A stretch of DNA of 6,663 nucleotides, taken from a virus (lineage: Duplodnaviria > Heunggongvirae > Uroviricota > Caudoviricetes). Numbering within the stretch: position 1 is the stretch's first letter; the number at the start of each line of letters is the position of its first letter. Both the position numbers and the translations under genes were made by a program. Positions 1 to 6,573 of this stretch are shown here, in pieces. The notes beneath the pieces are model-generated. The model searched no databases and was not told the DNA's origin. It worked only from the letters and a program-made list of their open reading frames with translations. The stretch lies in IMG/VR virus record IMGVR_UViG_2648501669_000009, positions 1-6,663 of that record. One strand, written 5' to 3'.

Positions 1-191
1 TTGTGCAGTGTGTTGAACGACGCCCATACCACGTCGTTATACAATTCAATAACTGGCTCAATTATTTTCCCGATTGCCCAGACAAAAATTAGAGGGGATA
101 TCGGTATCATTAACACGATAAACAGAATGAGAAACAGAAATTCTGTTGTTCTACTCTTTCGTGGATATTTTTTTCTGAATAATGTGACCAT
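1..191 (-). CDS. Partial CDS (first 63 codons, continues past window start): predicted small membrane protein
   Basis: Reverse-complementing 1-191 gives ATG at 191-189 and an open frame to position 1: MVTLFRKKYPRKSRTTEFLFLILFIVLMIPISPLIFVWAIGKIIEPVIELYNDVVWASFNTLH. It has a basic N-terminus followed by about 25 hydrophobic residues (one likely TM helix). It is absent from the ORF track because no stop lies in the window. AGGAGG (minus, 219-214) sits upstream, separated from the ATG by a GC hairpin. The start is uncertain (an ATG at 110 is also in frame). Confidence 0.4.
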   Translation of the reverse strand, partial: MVTLFRKKYPRKSRTTEFLFLILFIVLMIPISPLIFVWAIGKIIEPVIELYNDVVWASFNTLH

Positions 192-197
192 TCATTA

Positions 198-219
198 CCG
201 CCCTTTCGGGCGGCCTCCT
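198..219 (-). promoter_or_regulatory. Shine-Dalgarno AGGAGG plus a 6-bp GC stem with GAAA loop placed between the SD and the ATG at 191
   Basis: Plus strand 198-213 is ccgccctttcgggcgg (minus-strand RNA CCGCCC-GAAA-GGGCGG) and plus 214-219 is cctcct (minus AGGAGG). The linear SD-to-AUG distance is 22 nt, but about 6 nt if the hairpin folds. Confidence 0.35.
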
Positions 220-253
220 GATGTTTTGAGGGTGCAGGAATCCCTCCGGTTAA

Positions 254-280
254 GGATTTAATAAAAATCACTTCTGATTT
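254..280 (-). terminator. Weak hairpin with U-rich tail downstream of the 319-630 gene (possible partial terminator)
   Basis: Plus 265-280 is aaatca-cttc-tgattt, a perfect 6-bp inverted repeat with a 4-nt loop. On the minus strand it is followed by UUAUUAAAUCC. The stem is A/U-rich, so termination would be weak. Confidence 0.25.
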
Positions 281-318
281 AAATTTTCAGTGTTTTGTTG
301 CCAGGTGATTTATCGCCT

Positions 319-630
319 TTACGCTTCAGCCTTATTTCTCAGCCATACACAAACAGGACCATCTTCAGTGTCATGAATGGAACCAATGAACCAGCCATCG
401 CCCTCTGGTCGTTCCGGTTCCCATGCTGAAATATCAGGGCCATCTGCGTCCAGGTTAAAATCATCTTCATCCATAGTGCAGATAGTCCACTGAAGATTAT
501 TTGCCTCCATCCACGCGTTAAATTCCTCTGTGGAAATATATTCACGACCTGCGCAAAACTTTTCATACTCAGGATGTGTCCAGCAGCCATATTCATCACG
601 TACTACTGGTATTTCTTTAATTTCATTCAT
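319..630 (-). CDS. Hypothetical acidic protein, 103 aa (phage accessory; family not recognised)
   Basis: ORF MNEIKEIPVVRDEY...VWLRNKAEA. Its ATG at 630 overlaps the upstream stop in an ATGAATGA arrangement, with GGGAGA about 6 nt upstream. Very acidic and Trp-rich. Confidence 0.7.
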   Translation of the reverse strand: MNEIKEIPVVRDEYGCWTHPEYEKFCAGREYISTEEFNAWMEANNLQWTICTMDEDDFNLDADGPDISAWEPERPEGDGWFIGSIHDTEDGPVCVWLRNKAEA

Positions 631-877
631 TTCTGTTCTCCCACGTTTTCAGACTTTCACCACAGAACGGACAAAATGAAACCCGCACTGGTGATTTAGA
701 AAATTCACCGGAACGCAACATCACCAAATCAGGGCCGCGAGTTAAACTCTCATTCCAGATTTTGTATATCAGCAGACCTTTTCGCGTCGTGTATTCAGCA
801 TCATGCTCAAGGGATTTTGCCAGTGCCGTACACGGTTCTATCTTGTTGCCATTAATTTGGCATTTTGACTCACTCAC
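623..877 (-). CDS. Hypothetical Cys-containing small protein, 84 aa (putative zinc-binding)
   Basis: The track ORF 623-910 begins at a TTG inside the upstream gene. A GTG at 877-875 is preceded by AGGAGA plus a 6-nt spacer and overlaps the upstream TGA as GTGA, so it is the preferred start. The product (VSESKCQ...FCPFCGESLKTWENRNE) has Cys6, Cys16 and a C-terminal CPFC, a possible split zinc site. Confidence 0.6.
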   Translation of the reverse strand: MSESKCQINGNKIEPCTALAKSLEHDAEYTTRKGLLIYKIWNESLTRGPDLVMLRSGEFSKSPVRVSFCPFCGESLKTWENRNE

Positions 878-1341
878 TGGTTGTCTCCTTTGCGAATCTG
901 TTCCGCACAATGCAACAATGCTTCTGTCACTTCCTTAAGCGTTACAGTATCGGCATCATCCAGTTCTGCAACTTTTGCATGCCTGACAAACGCCGCGCGA
1001 AGCTCGTTAAACGCCACCGCCTGTATATCAGCCAGGAAAGCGTCAGTAGCTGGCGTTTCAGGCTTGAATCCATTTGCATCGCGTGGGCTGATGTCATCGC
1101 TTGTATAAATAAAGCAATCATCCTTAATGAATTTATTTAACCCCACATTCTCCACTGCCAGCGTCGCAAAATTAGCTTCCAGTTCTGCAATGCGTTTGCT
1201 TTGGGCTTCCCGTTCATCCAGCAGTTCCAACACAACCTGAGGTGTGACTTTCATGCGAAATGCCAGCAATTTTTGTGGTGTGGCTGCGATTTTTATTGCT
1301 TCTGCCACATCACGCAGTACCTGGTAATTAATGTTGCTCAC
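874..1341 (-). CDS. Coiled-coil protein, 155 aa, possibly Ead/Ea22-like
   Basis: The track ORF starts at ATG 1368 with no RBS. A GTG at 1341-1339 is preceded by AGGAGG (plus 1348-1353 cctcct) with a 6-nt spacer. The product (VSNINYQVLRDVAEAIK...ELEANFATLAVENVG...) has a predicted coiled-coil N-terminal half. The Ea22 resemblance is from memory only. Confidence 0.65.
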   Translation of the reverse strand: MSNINYQVLRDVAEAIKIAATPQKLLAFRMKVTPQVVLELLDEREAQSKRIAELEANFATLAVENVGLNKFIKDDCFIYTSDDISPRDANGFKPETPATDAFLADIQAVAFNELRAAFVRHAKVAELDDADTVTLKEVTEALLHCAEQIRKGDNQ

Positions 1342-1633
1342 TGGTTGCCTCCTGGAAAATAACTGCATGCCCCAGCTTCTCCGCCAGTGCCAGTTCCGCC
1401 TTAGCGCCTGCTGACCGCTGCCAGCCTTTCAGCATGTAAATCGCATCCACACAACGAATCATTGCCATGCAAATATCCATGTAGTGTGGCTGTGTCAGTC
1501 CGTCCGGAAGTACTGCCGGGTTTAAGACTGTATGCCCTTCCCGTTTCAGTTCCTCTTCCGCCTTGTGAAACGCCTCACGGTTGAAATTTTCATATCCCGT
1601 CATTGGACCGGCGATATAAACCCTCACCCTCAC
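1328..1633 (-). CDS. DUF4406-type protein (nucleoside 2-deoxyribosyltransferase-like fold), 101 aa
   Basis: The N-terminus MRVRVYIAGPMTGYENFN matches the YIAGPMTG signature I associate with the DUF4406 family. GTG start at 1633 with AGGAGG 8 nt upstream; it overlaps the upstream stop as GTGA. Confidence 0.8.
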   Translation of the reverse strand: MRVRVYIAGPMTGYENFNREAFHKAEEELKREGHTVLNPAVLPDGLTQPHYMDICMAMIRCVDAIYMLKGWQRSAGAKAELALAEKLGHAVIFQEATSEQH

Positions 1634-1947
1634 TCCTGTATCCTCCTGTCGAAATAAACATAGTTATTCACCGTGCGCAGCGGCATTTCGAGTTTTTCCG
1701 CTATCTCGCGACGAGAAATACCCTGCTCATGTAGCTTTCGTATCAGCTCAACACTGCTCCAGGGGATTTTTACCGACTGATGAAAATCACCTCGCAATAT
1801 CAGACTGATACCCAGTTCCCGCGCTTTTGTTCTTACTGCCACCTCCGTGCGACCAGTCAGTTTCCCGATATCTTTCACCCGCATGGTGCCAGCACACTGC
1901 CGGAGTATCAGAATTTCAGCCCTGCACCACTTCTTCCAGTTGCTCAC
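1630..1947 (-). CDS. Small DNA-binding protein with helix-turn-helix motifs, 105 aa (alternative start ATG 1884 gives 84 aa)
   Basis: The track ORF 1630-2034 overlaps the upstream gene by 80 nt. A GTG at 1947-1945 lies 5 nt after the upstream TAA and shares the GTGAGCAAC start context of the gene at 1341. HTH-like segments: GKLTGRTEVAVRTKARELGI and ISRREIAEKLEMPLRTVNNYV (NinH-like pattern). The start is not certain. Confidence 0.55.
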   Translation of the reverse strand: MSNWKKWCRAEILILRQCAGTMRVKDIGKLTGRTEVAVRTKARELGISLILRGDFHQSVKIPWSSVELIRKLHEQGISRREIAEKLEMPLRTVNNYVYFDRRIQE

Positions 1948-1952
1948 TGCTG

Positions 1953-2693
1953 TTACTCTCTGGTGGCAGTAATCTGTCGGAGAATATCCCGGTACTTGTT
2001 CAGCTCCCGCAGCGCGGCACAGACTCGCTCCCATTTCCGGATATCACTTTTCGCCCGACGCAGCTCGCGGTTTGCCTGTCGCAGCGATGGCAGAACCAGA
2101 TTATCCACTCGCTTCTCAAGCGGCTGCACAATGTCTGCCACAGTTTCTGTTTTAATATCTTCCTGTGTTGCAGCTTCCTGTACTGGTAACGCAACACATG
2201 CAGGCTGAGGAAAGGCTTTACCATCAGTTTCCGCTACCGATGCCGCTTTCGGCTCTGCTGGTAAATTACCGCCCGGCATGCAGTAGCGAAATTTACCGTT
2301 CTGGTTTACGCGTGCCAGCCGCCCCGTTGCGGTTACTACCGCCAGCGTGGAAGCAACCTTGCGAGTGCTGACACCGAACTTACCCGCCAGTTCCTCACAC
2401 GTTTTAGCTCCCTCCTGACCGATAAACTCAATCATCATGTCAGCGGTAACTTTTCGTTCGACCTCCCTGGTTAGCACATCCTGTACTTCAGATTGTGCTG
2501 GCTGCTCTTCGGCTACCCCTGATTCACCTTCGCCAGCCACACGCCAGGTGTATACGCTTTTATCAACGAAGCCAGCCTTTTTCAGTTCCCACAGCTCGTT
2601 CAGTACTTCTTCACGACTGATATCAAGTCGCGCAGCCAGCTCTACCGACGTGGCTTTTCCCATCGCTTTCAGTGCGTCAAAAACAGTCTCCAT
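1953..2693 (-). CDS. Tandem winged-helix-like protein with C-terminal coiled coil, 246 aa (phage early protein, function unknown)
   Basis: The track start (2744) overlaps the DnaC-like gene. The internal ATG at 2693-2691 has GGGAGG 8 nt upstream and sits 22 nt after the DnaC-like stop. Two similar segments ([30 protein letters not shown] and [34 protein letters not shown]) precede a basic, heptad-like C-terminus. Confidence 0.75.
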
Positions 2694-2715
2694 TAAAATT
2701 TCCTCCCGGTAAAAA

Positions 2716-3462
2716 TTACTTCTCAATACCTGGCTGACCAACATTCGGGCGCCAGCTCTCCCAGTTAAAATTCACCCATCGCCCGCCGTTCATGGTCATG
2801 CGATCCATAATCCGCTCGCCGAGCAATGTTTTCATGGCCTCATAGTTCAGGTTTGTCAGCATTCCCACGCTGCGCATCGACGCTGTCCGGCGATCAACAA
2901 TCTGGTGCAGTACCACCTGCTCGTTTTTCGTCTCGCGCTGAATGCCAATTTCATCAAGAACCAGCAGATCCACTTCGCACAGTTCCCGCAAAAATTTTTC
3001 GCCTGATTGCCCGTCGTCATAGCTGGCGTGTAGAGCACTCATAACATCAGCCACGGTAACCACAATCACTGTCTGGCCATCTTTCAGCAGGCGATTCCCG
3101 ATAGCCGCCGCTAAGTGGTTTTTCCCGGTACCAGGTTTTCCGCTGAATGCGAAATTTGTGCATCCGGTCATCAGTTCATCGGCGATGGATTTCACCTGGC
3201 TCAACGCGTATCGCTGGCCGTCATTCTGCACCTGGTAATTCGCAAACGAGCACTTGCGGTGCAACGGCTGGATGCCGGAGCGATTCAGAATTTTTTCCAC
3301 CCGCAACTGACGATTCTGGCGGTTGATCTCCTCGCAACGCTTCTGGCCTTCTGCAAGTTGCCACTCGCGCCACTCGTCCACTGTTCGGTATGGCGCGGTT
3401 ACATGCTGCGGAGCCAGCTTACGGATGCGTTCAAGAACACCGCCTGTCGCAATATTTTTCAT
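2716..3462 (-). CDS. DnaC-like AAA+ helicase loader (lambda P functional analogue; YdaV-type replication protein)
   Basis: Walker [16 protein letters not shown] and Walker B LLVLDEIG, 248 aa. The ATG at 3462 follows the O-like stop by 6 nt, with a GGGGG SD. Confidence 0.9.
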
Positions 3463-3468
3463 GCTTCG

Positions 3469-4416
3469 TTACCCCCTGAATCCCGGCGGAATTTCGGCGT
3501 CCGGCTCGGAAATATGATTCACGCAACGCTGTACAGGCGAACGCCCCAGACGAATAACCAGCTCATCCCATTTTTCGCGAAGCTTTGACGGGCTCATGAC
3601 GTTTTTTACCCAGAATGGATCCCGCTGTGCCCGACCAAACATTTCGCAAATTTGCCTGTGAGTTCTGCCATCAAGCATCCGCATTGTGCGCACGTCATTG
3701 GCCCATGCAGTCCAGTTGGGTTCTTTCGGTCGCATGATTTCGCCATCATCGCTGGCAGCCTGCTCGTAAAGACTCACGATTCGTCCCCAGATCCACTGCG
3801 CACACGCCAAATCTTCCTGGCTGCCCCACTGGCGTTTTTTCGCACTGAACACAACCGCGTCAGGGTGTCGGGTTAAAAAATCCTGTTCAGCCGTCTGCGG
3901 GTCCGGTTGCGAAGCGTCCGGACGAAAAGATCTTTTATCTGACGGATCAGGTTTTAATACTGACGGATCGGGGCCAACCATCGCCCCCCTAACCGGATGT
4001 TTTTTATCAACGGTTGATCCATCAAAATTTGAGGGGTCAACCGTTGAGGGGTCAATATTTGACGGGTCATTTTTTACCGGGTTAATTTTTCTTTTCGGTT
4101 TATATGCCTCACGCGCCGCCGCTGCTGCTGCTTCGAGTTTTTCCACATTAAGACGGTAGATATTGCTTTCATTACGCCCACCGACCTTACGTTCTTCCTT
4201 CGTCAGCCAGCCGTTCTTTTCCAGTTCTGCTATCGCAGCTTTAACCGTTGATTCACTCTTTGCCCCAATCTGACGACGAATGGTCTCCACTGCAGGCCAT
4301 GACACACCTTCGTCATTGCTGTAATCTGCAAGGCGAGCCATTACTGCCACCCTGGATAAGATCATGCCGGTGAAGGCGCACCCTTCCCAGACAAGACCAT
4401 GAAGCTTGCTGCTCAT
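3469..4416 (-). CDS. Phage replication initiation protein (lambda O-like: N-terminal winged-helix DNA-binding domain, repeat/poly-Ala linker, C-terminal domain)
   Basis: 315 aa. The N-terminal domain is HTH-like (VSWPAVETIRRQIGAKSESTVKAAIAELEKNGWL). The central region encodes EAAAAAARE and DPS repeats (DPSNIDPSTVDPSNFDGSTVD) that coincide with DNA iterons. It sits immediately upstream of the DnaC-like gene. GGAG SD 7 nt before ATG 4416. Confidence 0.85.
   Translation of the reverse strand: MSSKLHGLVWEGCAFTGMILSRVAVMARLADYSNDEGVSWPAVETIRRQIGAKSESTVKAAIAELEKNGWLTKEERKVGGRNESNIYRLNVEKLEAAAAAAREAYKPKRKINPVKNDPSNIDPSTVDPSNFDGSTVDKKHPVRGAMVGPDPSVLKPDPSDKRSFRPDASQPDPQTAEQDFLTRHPDAVVFSAKKRQWGSQEDLACAQWIWGRIVSLYEQAASDDGEIMRPKEPNWTAWANDVRTMRMLDGRTHRQICEMFGRAQRDPFWVKNVMSPSKLREKWDELVIRLGRSPVQRCVNHISEPDAEIPPGFRG
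3940..4074. repeat. Iteron-like direct repeats (core TGA[C/G]GG[A/G]TCA, at least 5 copies) inside the O-like gene, followed by an AT-rich tract: putative prophage replication origin
   Basis: Copies at 3940-3949 tgacggatca, 3961-3970 tgacggatcg, 4030-4039 tgaggggtca, 4045-4054 tgaggggtca and 4060-4069 tgacgggtca, the last three as tandem 15-bp units. Inverted repeats tcaacggttga (4008-4018) and tcaaccgttga (4037-4047). AT-rich tract about 4069-4105. Confidence 0.6.
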
Positions 4417-4440: not shown

Positions 4441-4866
4441 TTAGTGCATCACCAAGGCATTTCCCGCCGGACCACCACGATTCATCTGATTGAAACCAGC
4501 GATCGCCACTGCGACAAAATCATCAGCGTCTCTCACCAGTCGTTCCCGCGTCTCCACCAGCTCCCGAAACCAGGCTGAACTGTGGCTGCGCATTCGGGCC
4601 ACCAGCAGAGGAGGCATTGCTTTTTCGATCGCTGGTAACAACGCCTGAATTTTTTTAACCGCATCAGGGGTGTCTTTCTCCACCCAGCGGAAAATTTTCT
4701 GAGTATTGCGAGCCAGGGCTTCCGGATGGCTGTCGTCATATAATTCCGGGAACGTCATACCCAGCTCAAAATAAGCCCGGGTTATTTCAGCTGCCGGAAC
4801 TTTTTCACCGTCCGGATGCGCCCAGGCATTCATCGCCATGCGGATGTGTTCATGCTTGATTTTCAT
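4441..4866 (-). CDS. ydaT: YdaT-family protein (CII-like regulator of Rac/CP-933P-type prophages), 141 aa
   Basis: N-terminus MKIKHEHI. Its ATG overlaps the ydaS-like stop as ATGA (4866-4863). Second gene of the rightward-early-type operon, directly before the O-like gene. Confidence 0.8.
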   Translation of the reverse strand: MKIKHEHIRMAMNAWAHPDGEKVPAAEITRAYFELGMTFPELYDDSHPEALARNTQKIFRWVEKDTPDAVKKIQALLPAIEKAMPPLLVARMRSHSSAWFRELVETRERLVRDADDFVAVAIAGFNQMNRGGPAGNALVMH

Positions 4867-5165
4867 GAATCAACTCCATCAGATAAGCATGCACTACAAT
4901 CACCTTCAGCATGAACTACATGTGTTTGCCCCAAACGAATGCCGCTCGCATACTCAGGCCAAATAAGCTCCCAATCATGGGGTCGTAGCTCCGCCCTACT
5001 TACTTGGCCTTCCGTCGCAGATTCGATCATAAGGGCGCGGGTTGGAGATATAGCTGCTCGTCCAGACGCCATTTGCGATAAGTAAGATGGCGATACACCA
5101 AGTCTGGCCGCGAATTTCTTAGCATCACCAACCCTCAATGATTTAATAAACTCTTTTAATGTCAT
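4863..5165 (-). CDS. ydaS: YdaS-family Cro-like HTH regulator, 100 aa
   Basis: HTH DAKKFAARLGVSPSYLSQMASGRAAISPTRALMIESAT. First gene transcribed divergently from the repressor gene. GAGGAAGG SD before ATG 5165. Confidence 0.8.
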   Translation of the reverse strand: MTLKEFIKSLRVGDAKKFAARLGVSPSYLSQMASGRAAISPTRALMIESATEGQVSRAELRPHDWELIWPEYASGIRLGQTHVVHAEGDCSACLSDGVDS

Positions 5166-5175
5166 ACCTTCCTCG

Positions 5176-5251
5176 GTTTAGTGTTTTTTTGTGAGTTTAG
5201 TGTTTAATAAACCATTAAGTCAAGTATTTGCTTGTTTAGTGATTACTAAAG
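5176..5251. promoter_or_regulatory. OR-like operator cluster: three 18-bp sites each starting GTTTAGTG
   Basis: Sites at 5176-5193 gtttagtgtttttttgtg, 5195-5212 gtttagtgtttaataaac (GTTTA-N8-TAAAC dyad) and 5234-5251 gtttagtgattactaaag, all in the 97-bp interval between the divergent ydaS-like and repressor genes. Confidence 0.5.
5194..5223 (-). promoter_or_regulatory. PR-like sigma70 promoter for the ydaS-ydaT-O-DnaC operon
   Basis: Minus-strand -35 TTGACT (plus 5218-5223), 18-nt spacer, -10 TAAACT (plus 5194-5199). The operator at 5195-5212 covers the spacer and -10. Confidence 0.4.
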
Positions 5252-5256
5252 ATAAT
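5228..5256 (+). promoter_or_regulatory. PRM-like promoter for the repressor operon; predicted leaderless mRNA
   Basis: -35 TTGCTT (5228-5233), 17-nt spacer, -10 GATAAT (5251-5256). The ATG at 5263 lies 6 nt after the -10 with no SD, so the transcript would start at or next to the start codon. Confidence 0.45.
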
Positions 5257-5262
5257 TACCGC

Positions 5263-5634
5263 ATGCAAAAAAAAGAAATTCGCCGTTTACGTCTCAAGGA
5301 GTGGTTTAAAGATAAAACTCTGCCACCCAAAGAGAAGAGCTACCTATCTCAACTAATGAGTGGGAGGGCCTCGTTTGGAGAAAAGGCTGCCAGAAGAATA
5401 GAGCAAACATACGGGATGCCGGAAGGGTATCTGGATGCGGAATACGCAGAACAACCGGAAGTTTCTCCACCACATGCAGGGTTAACGTCTAATCAACTGG
5501 AATTATTGCAGATTTTTTCAGCCTTCCCTGAGGATGAGCAACGCCAGATAATCAGCGAGTTAAAGCAGAAAAAAGAATCAATGGAAGATCTCATAGCGAG
5601 ATGGATTGCGGCGCAAAAATGCCGCCGCGCCTGA
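5263..5634 (+). CDS. paaR2: XRE-family HTH repressor (CI-like prophage repressor; PaaR2-type regulator of a three-gene TA operon), 123 aa
   Basis: The track ORF begins at GTG 5191, only 25 nt from the divergent gene. The ATG at 5263 leaves room for both promoters. HTH KSYLSQLMSGRASFGEKAARRIEQTYGMPEGYLD. Divergent from the Cro-like gene and followed by an antitoxin-toxin pair. Confidence 0.7.
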   Translation: MQKKEIRRLRLKEWFKDKTLPPKEKSYLSQLMSGRASFGEKAARRIEQTYGMPEGYLDAEYAEQPEVSPPHAGLTSNQLELLQIFSAFPEDEQRQIISELKQKKESMEDLIARWIAAQKCRRA

Positions 5635-5654
5635 GTTATAAAACCGGAGGAAAC

Positions 5655-5846
5655 ATGAATAGAGCCCTTTCACCAATGGTTTCTGAATTTGAAACCATTG
5701 AACAAGAAAACAGTTACAACGAATGGCTGCGTGCGAAAGTAGCAACGAGCCTTGCAGATCCGCGCCCAGCAATTCCCCATGACGAAGTTGAGCGCAGAAT
5801 GGCAGAACGCTTTGCTAAAATGCGCAAGGAACGGAGCAAGCAGTAA
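5655..5846 (+). CDS. paaA2: PaaA2-type antitoxin, 63 aa
   Basis: The track ORF starts at ATG 5601 inside the repressor gene. The ATG at 5655 is preceded by GGAGGA (5645-5650). The 63-aa product (MNRALSPMVSEFETIEQENSYNEWLRAKVATSLADPRPAIPHDEVERRMAERFAKMRKERSKQ) matches the length and character I recall for PaaA2. Confidence 0.8.
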   Translation: MNRALSPMVSEFETIEQENSYNEWLRAKVATSLADPRPAIPHDEVERRMAERFAKMRKERSKQ

Positions 5847-5847
5847 A

Positions 5848-6126
5848 ATGTTACCCGTGTTATGGCTTGAAAGCGCAGATACCGACCTAGATGATATAGC
5901 TAGCTATATTGCTCGTTTCGACATAGATGCGGCTGAACGCTTATGGCAGCGATTAAGGGGTTGTGTGCTGCCGTTATCCGAACATCCGTATTTATACCCA
6001 CCAAGCGACAGAGTACCTGGCTTGCGTGAGATTGTAGCCCACCCTAACTATATAATTCTATACCGCGTAACAACATCAAGCGTTGAAGTAGTAAACGTGA
6101 TCCACGCAAGACGCCAGTTTCCCTAA
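5848..6126 (+). CDS. parE2: ParE-family toxin (ParE2-type), 92 aa
   Basis: ATG 5848 lies 1 nt after the antitoxin TAA (TAAaATG). The product MLPVLWLESADTDLDDIASYIARFDIDAAERLWQRL...ILYRVTTSSVEVVNVIHARRQFP has a ParE/RelE-like layout. The longer track ORF from 5752 is an in-frame upstream extension overlapping the antitoxin. Confidence 0.85.
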   Translation: MLPVLWLESADTDLDDIASYIARFDIDAAERLWQRLRGCVLPLSEHPYLYPPSDRVPGLREIVAHPNYIILYRVTTSSVEVVNVIHARRQFP

Positions 6127-6155
6127 CTTTCACTACCAATAGAAACATAACAACC

Positions 6156-6187
6156 GCAACGACTTTATCAAAAGCGTTGTGTTTGTT
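6156..6187 (+). terminator. Weak putative terminator after the TA operon (tImm-like position)
   Basis: CAACG (6157-6161) pairs with CGTTG (6175-6179) across a 13-nt loop, followed by the U-rich gtttgtt (6181-6187). Short stem, so low confidence. Confidence 0.3.
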
Positions 6188-6197
6188 ACGCTCCGTG

Positions 6198-6238
6198 GTT
6201 TAGTTTTTACTTGACTTAAGTTTAATGTTTATTAAACT
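6198..6238 (+). promoter_or_regulatory. OL-like operator copies plus PL-like promoter for the early-left genes
   Basis: 6220-6237 gtttaatgtttattaaac matches the OR site 5195-5212 at 16 of 18 positions. 6198-6215 gtttagtttttacttgac shares only the left half. -35 TTGACT (6211-6216), 16-nt spacer, -10 TAAACT (6233-6238), the same hexamers as the PR-like promoter. Confidence 0.45.
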
Positions 6239-6417
6239 AAAAATACCAACCCACCCCGCCCCACAGAATGCAGGGCAATACTTCGAGTTACCAGGCAGTG
6301 GTCAGGGGTTAAGTAGCCAGCCCGAGGCGTAAGAACATGACGGCAGGGTTCAACTTTAATAACTATGCAGCAGGTTTTTGTTCCGCTACCCCGGCGTTAA
6401 GGGGAAATGAGGTCAGC

Positions 6418-6573
6418 ATGGATACTATCGATCTTGGCAACAACGAATCTCTGGTGTACGGCGTGTTTCTCAACCAGGACGGTACGTTCACCGCGATGAC
6501 GTATACCAAAAGCAAAACGTTTAAAACCGAATCTGGCGCGCGTCGCTGGCTGGAAAGAAATTCAGGTGAGTGA
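6418..6573 (+). CDS. Small early-left protein, 51 aa (I believe it resembles Rac YdaF, unverified)
   Basis: ATG 6418 with GAGG 5 nt upstream. Product MDTIDLGNNESLVYGVFLNQDGTFTAMTYTKSKTFKTESGARRWLERNSGE. The track start at 6337 has no SD and would give 78 aa. Confidence 0.6.
   Translation: MDTIDLGNNESLVYGVFLNQDGTFTAMTYTKSKTFKTESGARRWLERNSGE

Follow-up and report, generated by a model that had tools for sequence, protein, structure and literature searches.

The paaR2-paaA2-parE2 operon in the probable immunity region of a CP-933P-type lambdoid prophage or phage of Escherichia coli

The 6,663-nt stretch of viral DNA analysed here (the window) is best explained as part of a lambdoid prophage or phage of E. 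coli of the CP-933P/Sp12 type, whose immunity region carries the paaR2-paaA2-parE2 ('RAE2') operon; we give this reading a probability of roughly 95%. The three genes lie on a single strand (+) in the order R-A-E. They are paaR2 (5263-5634, ATG to TGA, 123 aa), encoding a CI-analogue repressor that also regulates the toxin-antitoxin (TA) pair and is translated from a leaderless message, paaA2 (5655-5846, ATG to TAA, 63 aa), encoding an antitoxin without a DNA-binding domain, and parE2 (5848-6126, ATG to TAA, 92 aa), encoding a ParE-family toxin. The gaps are 20 nt between paaR2 and paaA2 and 1 nt between paaA2 and parE2. A first-pass annotation of the same DNA had proposed these gene boundaries, which hold in both the open reading frame list and the raw sequence. 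It had also assigned the genes to the PaaR2-PaaA2-ParE2 family, and this is correct according to the PDB identities, the Pfam profiles, and the O157:H7 alignments. Every feature by which the PaaR-PaaA-ParE family is recognised in sequence was found: the toxin is of the ParE family and the antitoxin of the PaaA type, a PaaR regulator is encoded upstream of both, and the gene order and spacing agree. Judged by its sequence, at 98-100% protein identity, the locus is the PaaR2-PaaA2-ParE2 system itself and not merely of its 'type'.

Cryptic prophage CP-933P of E. coli O157:H7 EDL933 (Sp12 in Sakai) has the same three genes in the same order and with the same spacing, and its OL/PL set, its ydaS-ydaT partner operon, and its YdaT operator are all present in the window. 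The sources on the CP-933P system are Hallez et al. 2010, as cited in PMC8630535, PMC8630535 itself, and PDB entries 3ZBE, 5CW7, 5CZE, 5CZF, 7NKV, 8C3K, and 8C3L. The window differs from the CP-933P/O157:H7 locus in ParE2 T18A, in PaaR2 E66/V67, in G5261, and in a DUF1391 gene past ~6407. The mechanism of the CP-933P copy probably carries over to the copy in the window, given the protein identity and the near-identical operator region.

The TA pair was assigned by both structures and profiles. Residues 2-63 of PaaA2 are identical to PaaA2 in PDB 3ZBE/5CW7 (E = 5.5e-37), and ParE2 is identical to PDB 5CW7_B at 91 of its 92 residues (E = 3.6e-59), T18A being the sole change. Profile searches of the two products had been proposed as a check of the family assignment, and both passed: PaaA2 matched Pfam PaaA2 (PF21217) at 1e-19 (70.7 bits, cut-off 27), and ParE2 matched ParE_toxin (PF05016) at 6.7e-17 (62.3 bits, cut-off 23) over profile positions 1-89 of 89. 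Codon 18 of parE2 (5899-5901) encodes alanine in the window and threonine in the PDB, O157:H7, ETEC1732, and phage Evi copies. Direct reading of the sequence also bore out two details noticed earlier. The 63-aa gene has a GGAGGA Shine-Dalgarno (SD) sequence of its own (5645-5650, +), 4 nt before its ATG, and a lone A (5847) separates the paaA2 stop codon from the parE2 start codon.

The scans called neither promoter- nor terminator-like sites separating paaR2, paaA2, and parE2, and the sequence is thus compatible with their co-transcription and with repression of all of them by PaaR; both were found experimentally for the CP-933P copy according to PMC8630535, which cites Hallez et al. 2010. 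The promoter scan upstream of paaA2 found no internal promoter feeding paaA2-parE2. A promoter-like match inside parE2 (5867-5895) was taken as chance, since the scan called 5 sites in total against 2.4 +/- 1.5 in shuffled sequences. An attenuator between the repressor and the TA pair was also considered, at a GC-rich stem in the 3' end of paaR2 (~5607-5629), and it was rejected because the fold is no better than those of shuffled sequences (z = -0.68). Toxicity of ParE, its neutralisation by PaaA, and post-segregational killing have been published for a copy that is one ParE2 residue different (PMC8630535). In the same work, the antitoxin PaaA2 is a proteolytic substrate of ClpAP and ClpXP that lacks a DNA-binding domain, and the toxin ParE2 is an inducer of SOS that localises with the nucleoid (PMC8630535).

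Residues 1-65 of PaaR2 are identical to the N-terminal domain structures PDB 7NKV/8C3K, and the full-length protein is identical to the O157:H7 copy at 121 of 123 positions. The two differences (E66 and V67 in the window, G and G in O157:H7) lie in the inter-domain linker, just beyond the crystallised N-terminal domain. In PHROGs, PaaR2 matches phrog_5736 'transcriptional regulator' (1.6e-39). The gene had been described as a 123-aa XRE-HTH gene; its size, position, and divergent orientation stand, while the XRE/HTH label finds no backing in Pfam, where PaaR2 matched no family at E <= 0.01 and hence neither XRE/HTH nor Peptidase_S24. The DNA-binding nature of PaaR2 is indicated instead by its identity to 7NKV/8C3K, by phrog_5736, and by the HHpred-predicted HTH and the binding experiments in PMC8630535. 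Because no Pfam family was found, classification of PaaR2 as an XRE or CI-family protein was rejected. PaaR2 functions like CI, yet it is no member of the CI family, as the S24 autocleavage domain is missing. The published CP-933P repressor likewise has no S24 domain and does not respond to mitomycin C (PMC8630535).

The DicA model NF007257 aligns through its C-terminal part with residues 70-119 of PaaR2 (5470-5619; E = 9.1e-07), at 28.8 bits and far short of its cut-off of 101. The match is a hint that PaaR2 and DicA, the Qin prophage repressor, may have a C-terminal domain in common, presumably for oligomerisation. DicA occupies the same genomic position as paaR2 (PMC8630535), but the N-terminal domains do not match and no TA pair lies behind DicA.

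An A8 run (5267-5274) follows the ATGC of paaR2. ETEC1732 has A7 at this site, with a frameshift after codon 4 (L001 12860-12880), and there PGAP calls a coding sequence shortened at its 5' end. The A7 may be a genuine repressor-null allele or a homopolymer sequencing error. Phase variation at the A8 run was considered and found no evidence: the matches in KS-NP019 and PSS-15 are 1 nt shorter, but these strains keep paaR2 intact and have the deletion in the T7 run of OR.

The OR region (5166-5262) contains PR933P, PRM933P, and GTTTAGT-type operator repeats, and the distance of 97 bp between ydaS and paaR2 is that published for CP-933P (PMC8630535). PR933P (-) was found by the promoter scan, with TTGACT at 5223-5218 and TAAACT at 5199-5194. 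PRM933P (+), with GATAAT at 5251-5256 as its -10 hexamer and +1 at 5263, was placed by its fit to the published transcription start. A promoter at 5228-5256 had been suggested from the sequence, and it agrees with this start, which falls on the first base of the paaR2 ATG. PRM is absent from the consensus scan list because its -35 hexamer is poor (3/6). There is no SD sequence before paaR2, and the GATAAT ends 6 nt before the ATG. In CP-933P the PRM933P transcript begins at the translation start of paaR2 and is leaderless like that of lambda cI (PMC8630535).

A divergent repressor and Cro-like gene, a common multi-operator region, and face-to-face promoters, as in lambdoid switches, are thus all found here. 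OR differs from that of O157:H7 by a single base, G5261 against A, two bases before the transcription start and the ATG. The published primers F-prom-PaaR2 and F-1-PaaR2 match exactly at 5166-5191 and 5263-5290, respectively. The footprints of PaaR2 and YdaS overlap within the 97-bp region of CP-933P, which contains four 18-bp inverted repeats and three pseudosymmetric operators (PMC8630535). Between strains, OR is almost invariant outside a T7 run (5184-5190), which is T6 in KS-NP019 and PSS-15 and TTTTCTT in phage Evi. Since the run sits between two GTTTAGT operator repeats, the operator spacing varies by 1 bp among strains.

On the other side of OR, and divergent from paaR2, lies ydaS (4863-5165, -), which encodes a Cro-analogue repressor of 100 aa. 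YdaS matches YdaS_toxin (3.9e-12), HTH_3 (1.4e-06), and P22_Cro (0.0068) in Pfam, and phrog_35 (6.9e-24). Its DNA binding has been published for the CP-933P copy by EMSA and footprinting (PMC8630535). The start of ydaT (4441-4866, -) overlaps the stop of ydaS, and it encodes a CII-analogue transcriptional activator of 141 aa that matches Pfam YdaT_toxin (PF06254, 1.4e-09) and phrog_163 'CII-like transcriptional activator' (1.4e-45). The function of YdaT has been published for the CP-933P copy (PMC8630535; PMC9986795). Both proteins go by the misleading name of 'toxins' in Pfam and PGAP, whereas the literature shows YdaS and YdaT to be Cro-like and CII-like regulators, respectively. The YdaT operator OM (4856-4873, TTGATTTTCATGAATCAA) lies at the ydaS/ydaT junction, next to PRE933P. 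It is an exact match to the published TTGATTN6AATCAA and the sole match in the window, with 0.04 expected by chance. A YdaT footprint on OM has been published (PMC9986795).

Downstream of parE2 there is a hairpin (6148-6188, +) that may be a weak terminator, in which case its position would make it the counterpart of lambda t-imm. The region 6120-6205 folds at -19.5 kcal/mol (z = -3.4 against shuffled sequences), and the stem arms of the hairpin are identical across the O157:H7 and ETEC1732 copies. The hairpin has no canonical T-run, and the terminator scan gave no call at 6148-6188. A weak terminator had been suggested here from the sequence. The hairpin itself is real, and 'weak terminator' is a fair wording since the T-run and the scan call are both lacking; the hairpin may act as one.

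The hairpin is followed by the OL operators and PL933P (6187-6245, +), with TTGACT at 6211-6216, a 16-nt spacer, and TAAACT at 6233-6238, directed away from parE2. The hexamers of PL were the same as those of PR in the promoter scan. Repeats of 24-27 nt (D1, D2, I1, and I2) join 5165-5250 to 6187-6237 in direct and inverted orientation, and I5 is also common to OR and OL. These repeats, together with the PR-type hexamers at 6211-6238, indicate that the second operator and promoter seen by the first-pass annotation are real. A distant second operator set with a PL-type promoter is another feature of lambdoid switches, and it is conserved in O157:H7 and ETEC1732. In the CP-933P copy, PL is repressed about 100-fold by PaaR2 and YdaS (PMC8630535). 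An Rfam scan of the whole window at gathering thresholds found nothing, and thus no known sRNA or nut-like RNA around PL. Similarity to the O157:H7 prophage stops at ~6407, shortly before the SD sequence of the DUF1391 gene (6418-6573, +), which is the first gene downstream of PL and is common to ETEC1732. Beyond this joint, the O157:H7 sequence is unrelated and carries an ECs_2282-family gene on the opposite strand. The break is typical lambdoid mosaicism at a gene boundary.

The way in which these parts work together has been published for CP-933P. Jurenas et al. 2021 (PMC8630535) and Prolic-Kalinsek et al. 2023 (PMC9986795) showed PaaR2 to be a leaderless CI analogue and YdaS and YdaT to be Cro- and CII-like, respectively, and in the latter paper paaA2-parE2 replaces rexA-rexB and PaaR2 replaces CI. 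The genes had earlier been placed in the rexAB slot from the sequence of the window, and PMC9986795 states this position outright for paaA2-parE2. The proposal that the immunity repressor doubles as the TA regulator is borne out in CP-933P, where footprints, promoter fusions, and 5' RACE demonstrated it (PMC8630535). There, paaR2, paaA2, and parE2 form an operon, PaaR2 and YdaS each repress PR, PRM, and PL, and at low levels of PaaR2 PRM is activated about four-fold. A PRE-like promoter, situated between ydaS and ydaT, responds to activation by YdaT, and the locus is bistable with both states inherited (PMC8630535).

In the window, on the pattern demonstrated in CP-933P, PaaR2 made from the leaderless PRM933P mRNA would bind the repeated operators in the 97-bp OR and at OL. 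It would repress PR (ydaS-ydaT) and PL, while its own promoter would be activated at a low dose and repressed at a high one. YdaS would contest the same operators, giving two heritable states, and YdaT on TTGATTN6AATCAA at the ydaS/ydaT junction would turn PRE on and open a second route into the operon. As paaA2 and parE2 would ride on the repressor transcript, a DNA-binding domain is unnecessary in the antitoxin. PaaA2, degraded by ClpAP/ClpXP, is expected to wrap ParE2 as an inactive complex. Upon loss of the locus PaaA2 would decay and ParE2 would be freed, leading to SOS and to cell death or arrest. In a plasmid test, the complete ydaST-RAE2 region was as good as ccdAB at stabilising an unstable mini-F, and the authors proposed that the TA pair is an addiction module guarding the immunity region against rearrangement or replacement (PMC8630535). 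Following their proposal, the module in the window is likely to be an addiction cassette that keeps the immunity region, and with it the prophage, from being deleted or replaced through recombination.

The layout resembles that of lambda in several respects. The repressor gene and a cro-like gene diverge from a region with several operators, the repressor message has no leader, and two passenger genes share the repressor transcript. Beyond the passengers lie a PL-like promoter and second operators, and a CII-like activator provides a PRE-like entry. However, there is no sequence similarity to CI, Cro, CII, RexA, or RexB, and the analogy with RexAB is only positional, the passengers being RexAB in lambda and a ParE-type TA pair in the window. 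Moreover, lambda has three operators where the CP-933P type has four inverted repeats, and PaaR2 is without the S24 autocleavage domain. Canonical parDE systems (RK2 ParDE, Caulobacter ParDE1 in PDB 3KXE, Vibrio cholerae ParDE2) likewise have a ParE-fold toxin and, just upstream, a small, labile, partly disordered antitoxin, and ParE2 has weak PDB matches to 3KXE (5e-05) and 6X0A (9e-05). Unlike in these systems, PaaA2 is without a DNA-binding domain and regulation falls to a separate repressor encoded upstream and to the phage switch, and the target of ParE2 is not established as gyrase (PMC8630535).

We considered whether the TA pair might have a role other than addiction. Transcribed with the repressor of the lysogen, paaA2-parE2 could form an abortive-infection or exclusion module with a Rex-like role, possibly alongside addiction. 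Prophage-borne type II TA systems often serve phage defence, which counts for this role, as does the position of paaA2-parE2 in the rexAB slot (PMC9986795). On the other hand, neither protein resembles RexA or RexB and their Pfam matches are to PaaA2 and ParE_toxin only, the PADLOC defence models gave no match to PaaR2, PaaA2, or ParE2, and no phage-exclusion phenotype is reported in PMC8630535. We consider a Rex-like role unlikely. In a truly inducible phage such as Evi, shut-off of PRM/PRE might exhaust PaaA2 and leave ParE2 active during induction, or the pair might exclude heteroimmune phages in a Rex-like way; we regard this as quite improbable. If true, ParE2 might make commitment to induction irreversible or damage host DNA metabolism in favour of the phage.

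The first-pass annotation had further suggested that the operon couples toxin release to lysogeny, and this clause can now be weighed against existing negative data. The lysogeny switch would then govern toxin release: PaaR2 would be displaced, PRM turned off, the labile PaaA2 exhausted, and ParE2 freed, so that the toxin reports or enforces the prophage state. The TA pair lies on the repressor transcript and PaaA2 is protease-labile, and the operon is also found in the isolated coliphage Evi, where the lysis-lysogeny decision is real; these observations make such a coupling conceivable. However, it was tested and not seen with a plasmid reporter of the defective prophage CP-933P in single cells at steady state, in which both states showed transcription of the TA pair and SOS-positive cells made up 0.876% (ydaST-on) and 0.953% (RAE2-on) (chi-square P = 0.62; no different from construct-free cells; PMC8630535). 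Expression of the TA pair in the ydaST-on state is explained by PRE as a second upstream entry. Moreover, since PaaR2 is without an S24 domain and is insensitive to mitomycin C, SOS-triggered collapse of the repressor is not expected. Toxin release governed by the switch is therefore very unlikely; release of ParE2 occurs upon loss of the locus, as post-segregational killing, and not upon a flip of the switch. It is hardly credible that the pair is a plain two-gene parDE-like module with its own promoter beside an unrelated phage repressor and not part of a three-component operon: the strong SD sequence of paaA2 and a TA reporter that is on in both switch states leave room for some PRM-independent transcription, but the paaR2-paaA2 gap is just 20 nt, the scans of 5263-5655 called neither a sigma-70-like promoter nor a terminator, PaaA2 is incapable of autoregulation without a DNA-binding domain, and operon status and regulation by PaaR2 have been published (PMC8630535).

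With the RAE2 operon as the preferred reading, the locus is one already known in detail, as its structures, operators, promoters, lambda-like logic, and addiction phenotype have all been published. The cassette is also common. Of 5426 complete E. coli genomes, 633 carry a match to the 1095-bp segment 5166-6260 (595 with a match over >=80% of the query), nearly always as a single chromosomal copy per genome. The window therefore has scant value as a discovery, and the practical gain is a confident annotation, including features that annotation pipelines miss or mislabel. In public annotation PaaR2 is a 'hypothetical protein' and PaaA2 a 'RelB family antitoxin', and parE2 is unannotated in the phage Evi record.

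The closest complete genomes (99.5-99.6%) are those of porcine ETEC and STEC strains and UMNF18, and the cassette copies of O157:H7, O55:H7, and ATCC 25922 are 98.9% identical. In ETEC1732 the cassette lies in a lambdoid prophage beside ompW, with integrase, exonuclease, dicB, Q, RusA, and lysis genes. Escherichia phage Evi (LR597642), a coliphage isolated from infant faeces, carries the cassette at 98.4% with parE2 intact.

The remainder of the window (1-2744 and 2716-3462) is a lambdoid replication and early-gene module. The gene at 2716-3462 (-) encodes a DnaC-like helicase loader (NF009043, 3.4e-153). Within an O-like gene (3469-4416, -) there are three to four tandem 15-bp units (4007-4069, consensus TCAAAATTTGAGGGG), whose coding strand encodes a DPSN/DPST/DPSN/DGST peptide repeat. 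These units look like origin iterons within a replication-initiator gene, as in lambda O. Other open reading frames of the window, matched by position, are placed as the DUF1627, DUF977, DUF4406, and ead/Ea22-like genes of the ETEC1732 and O157:H7 prophages.
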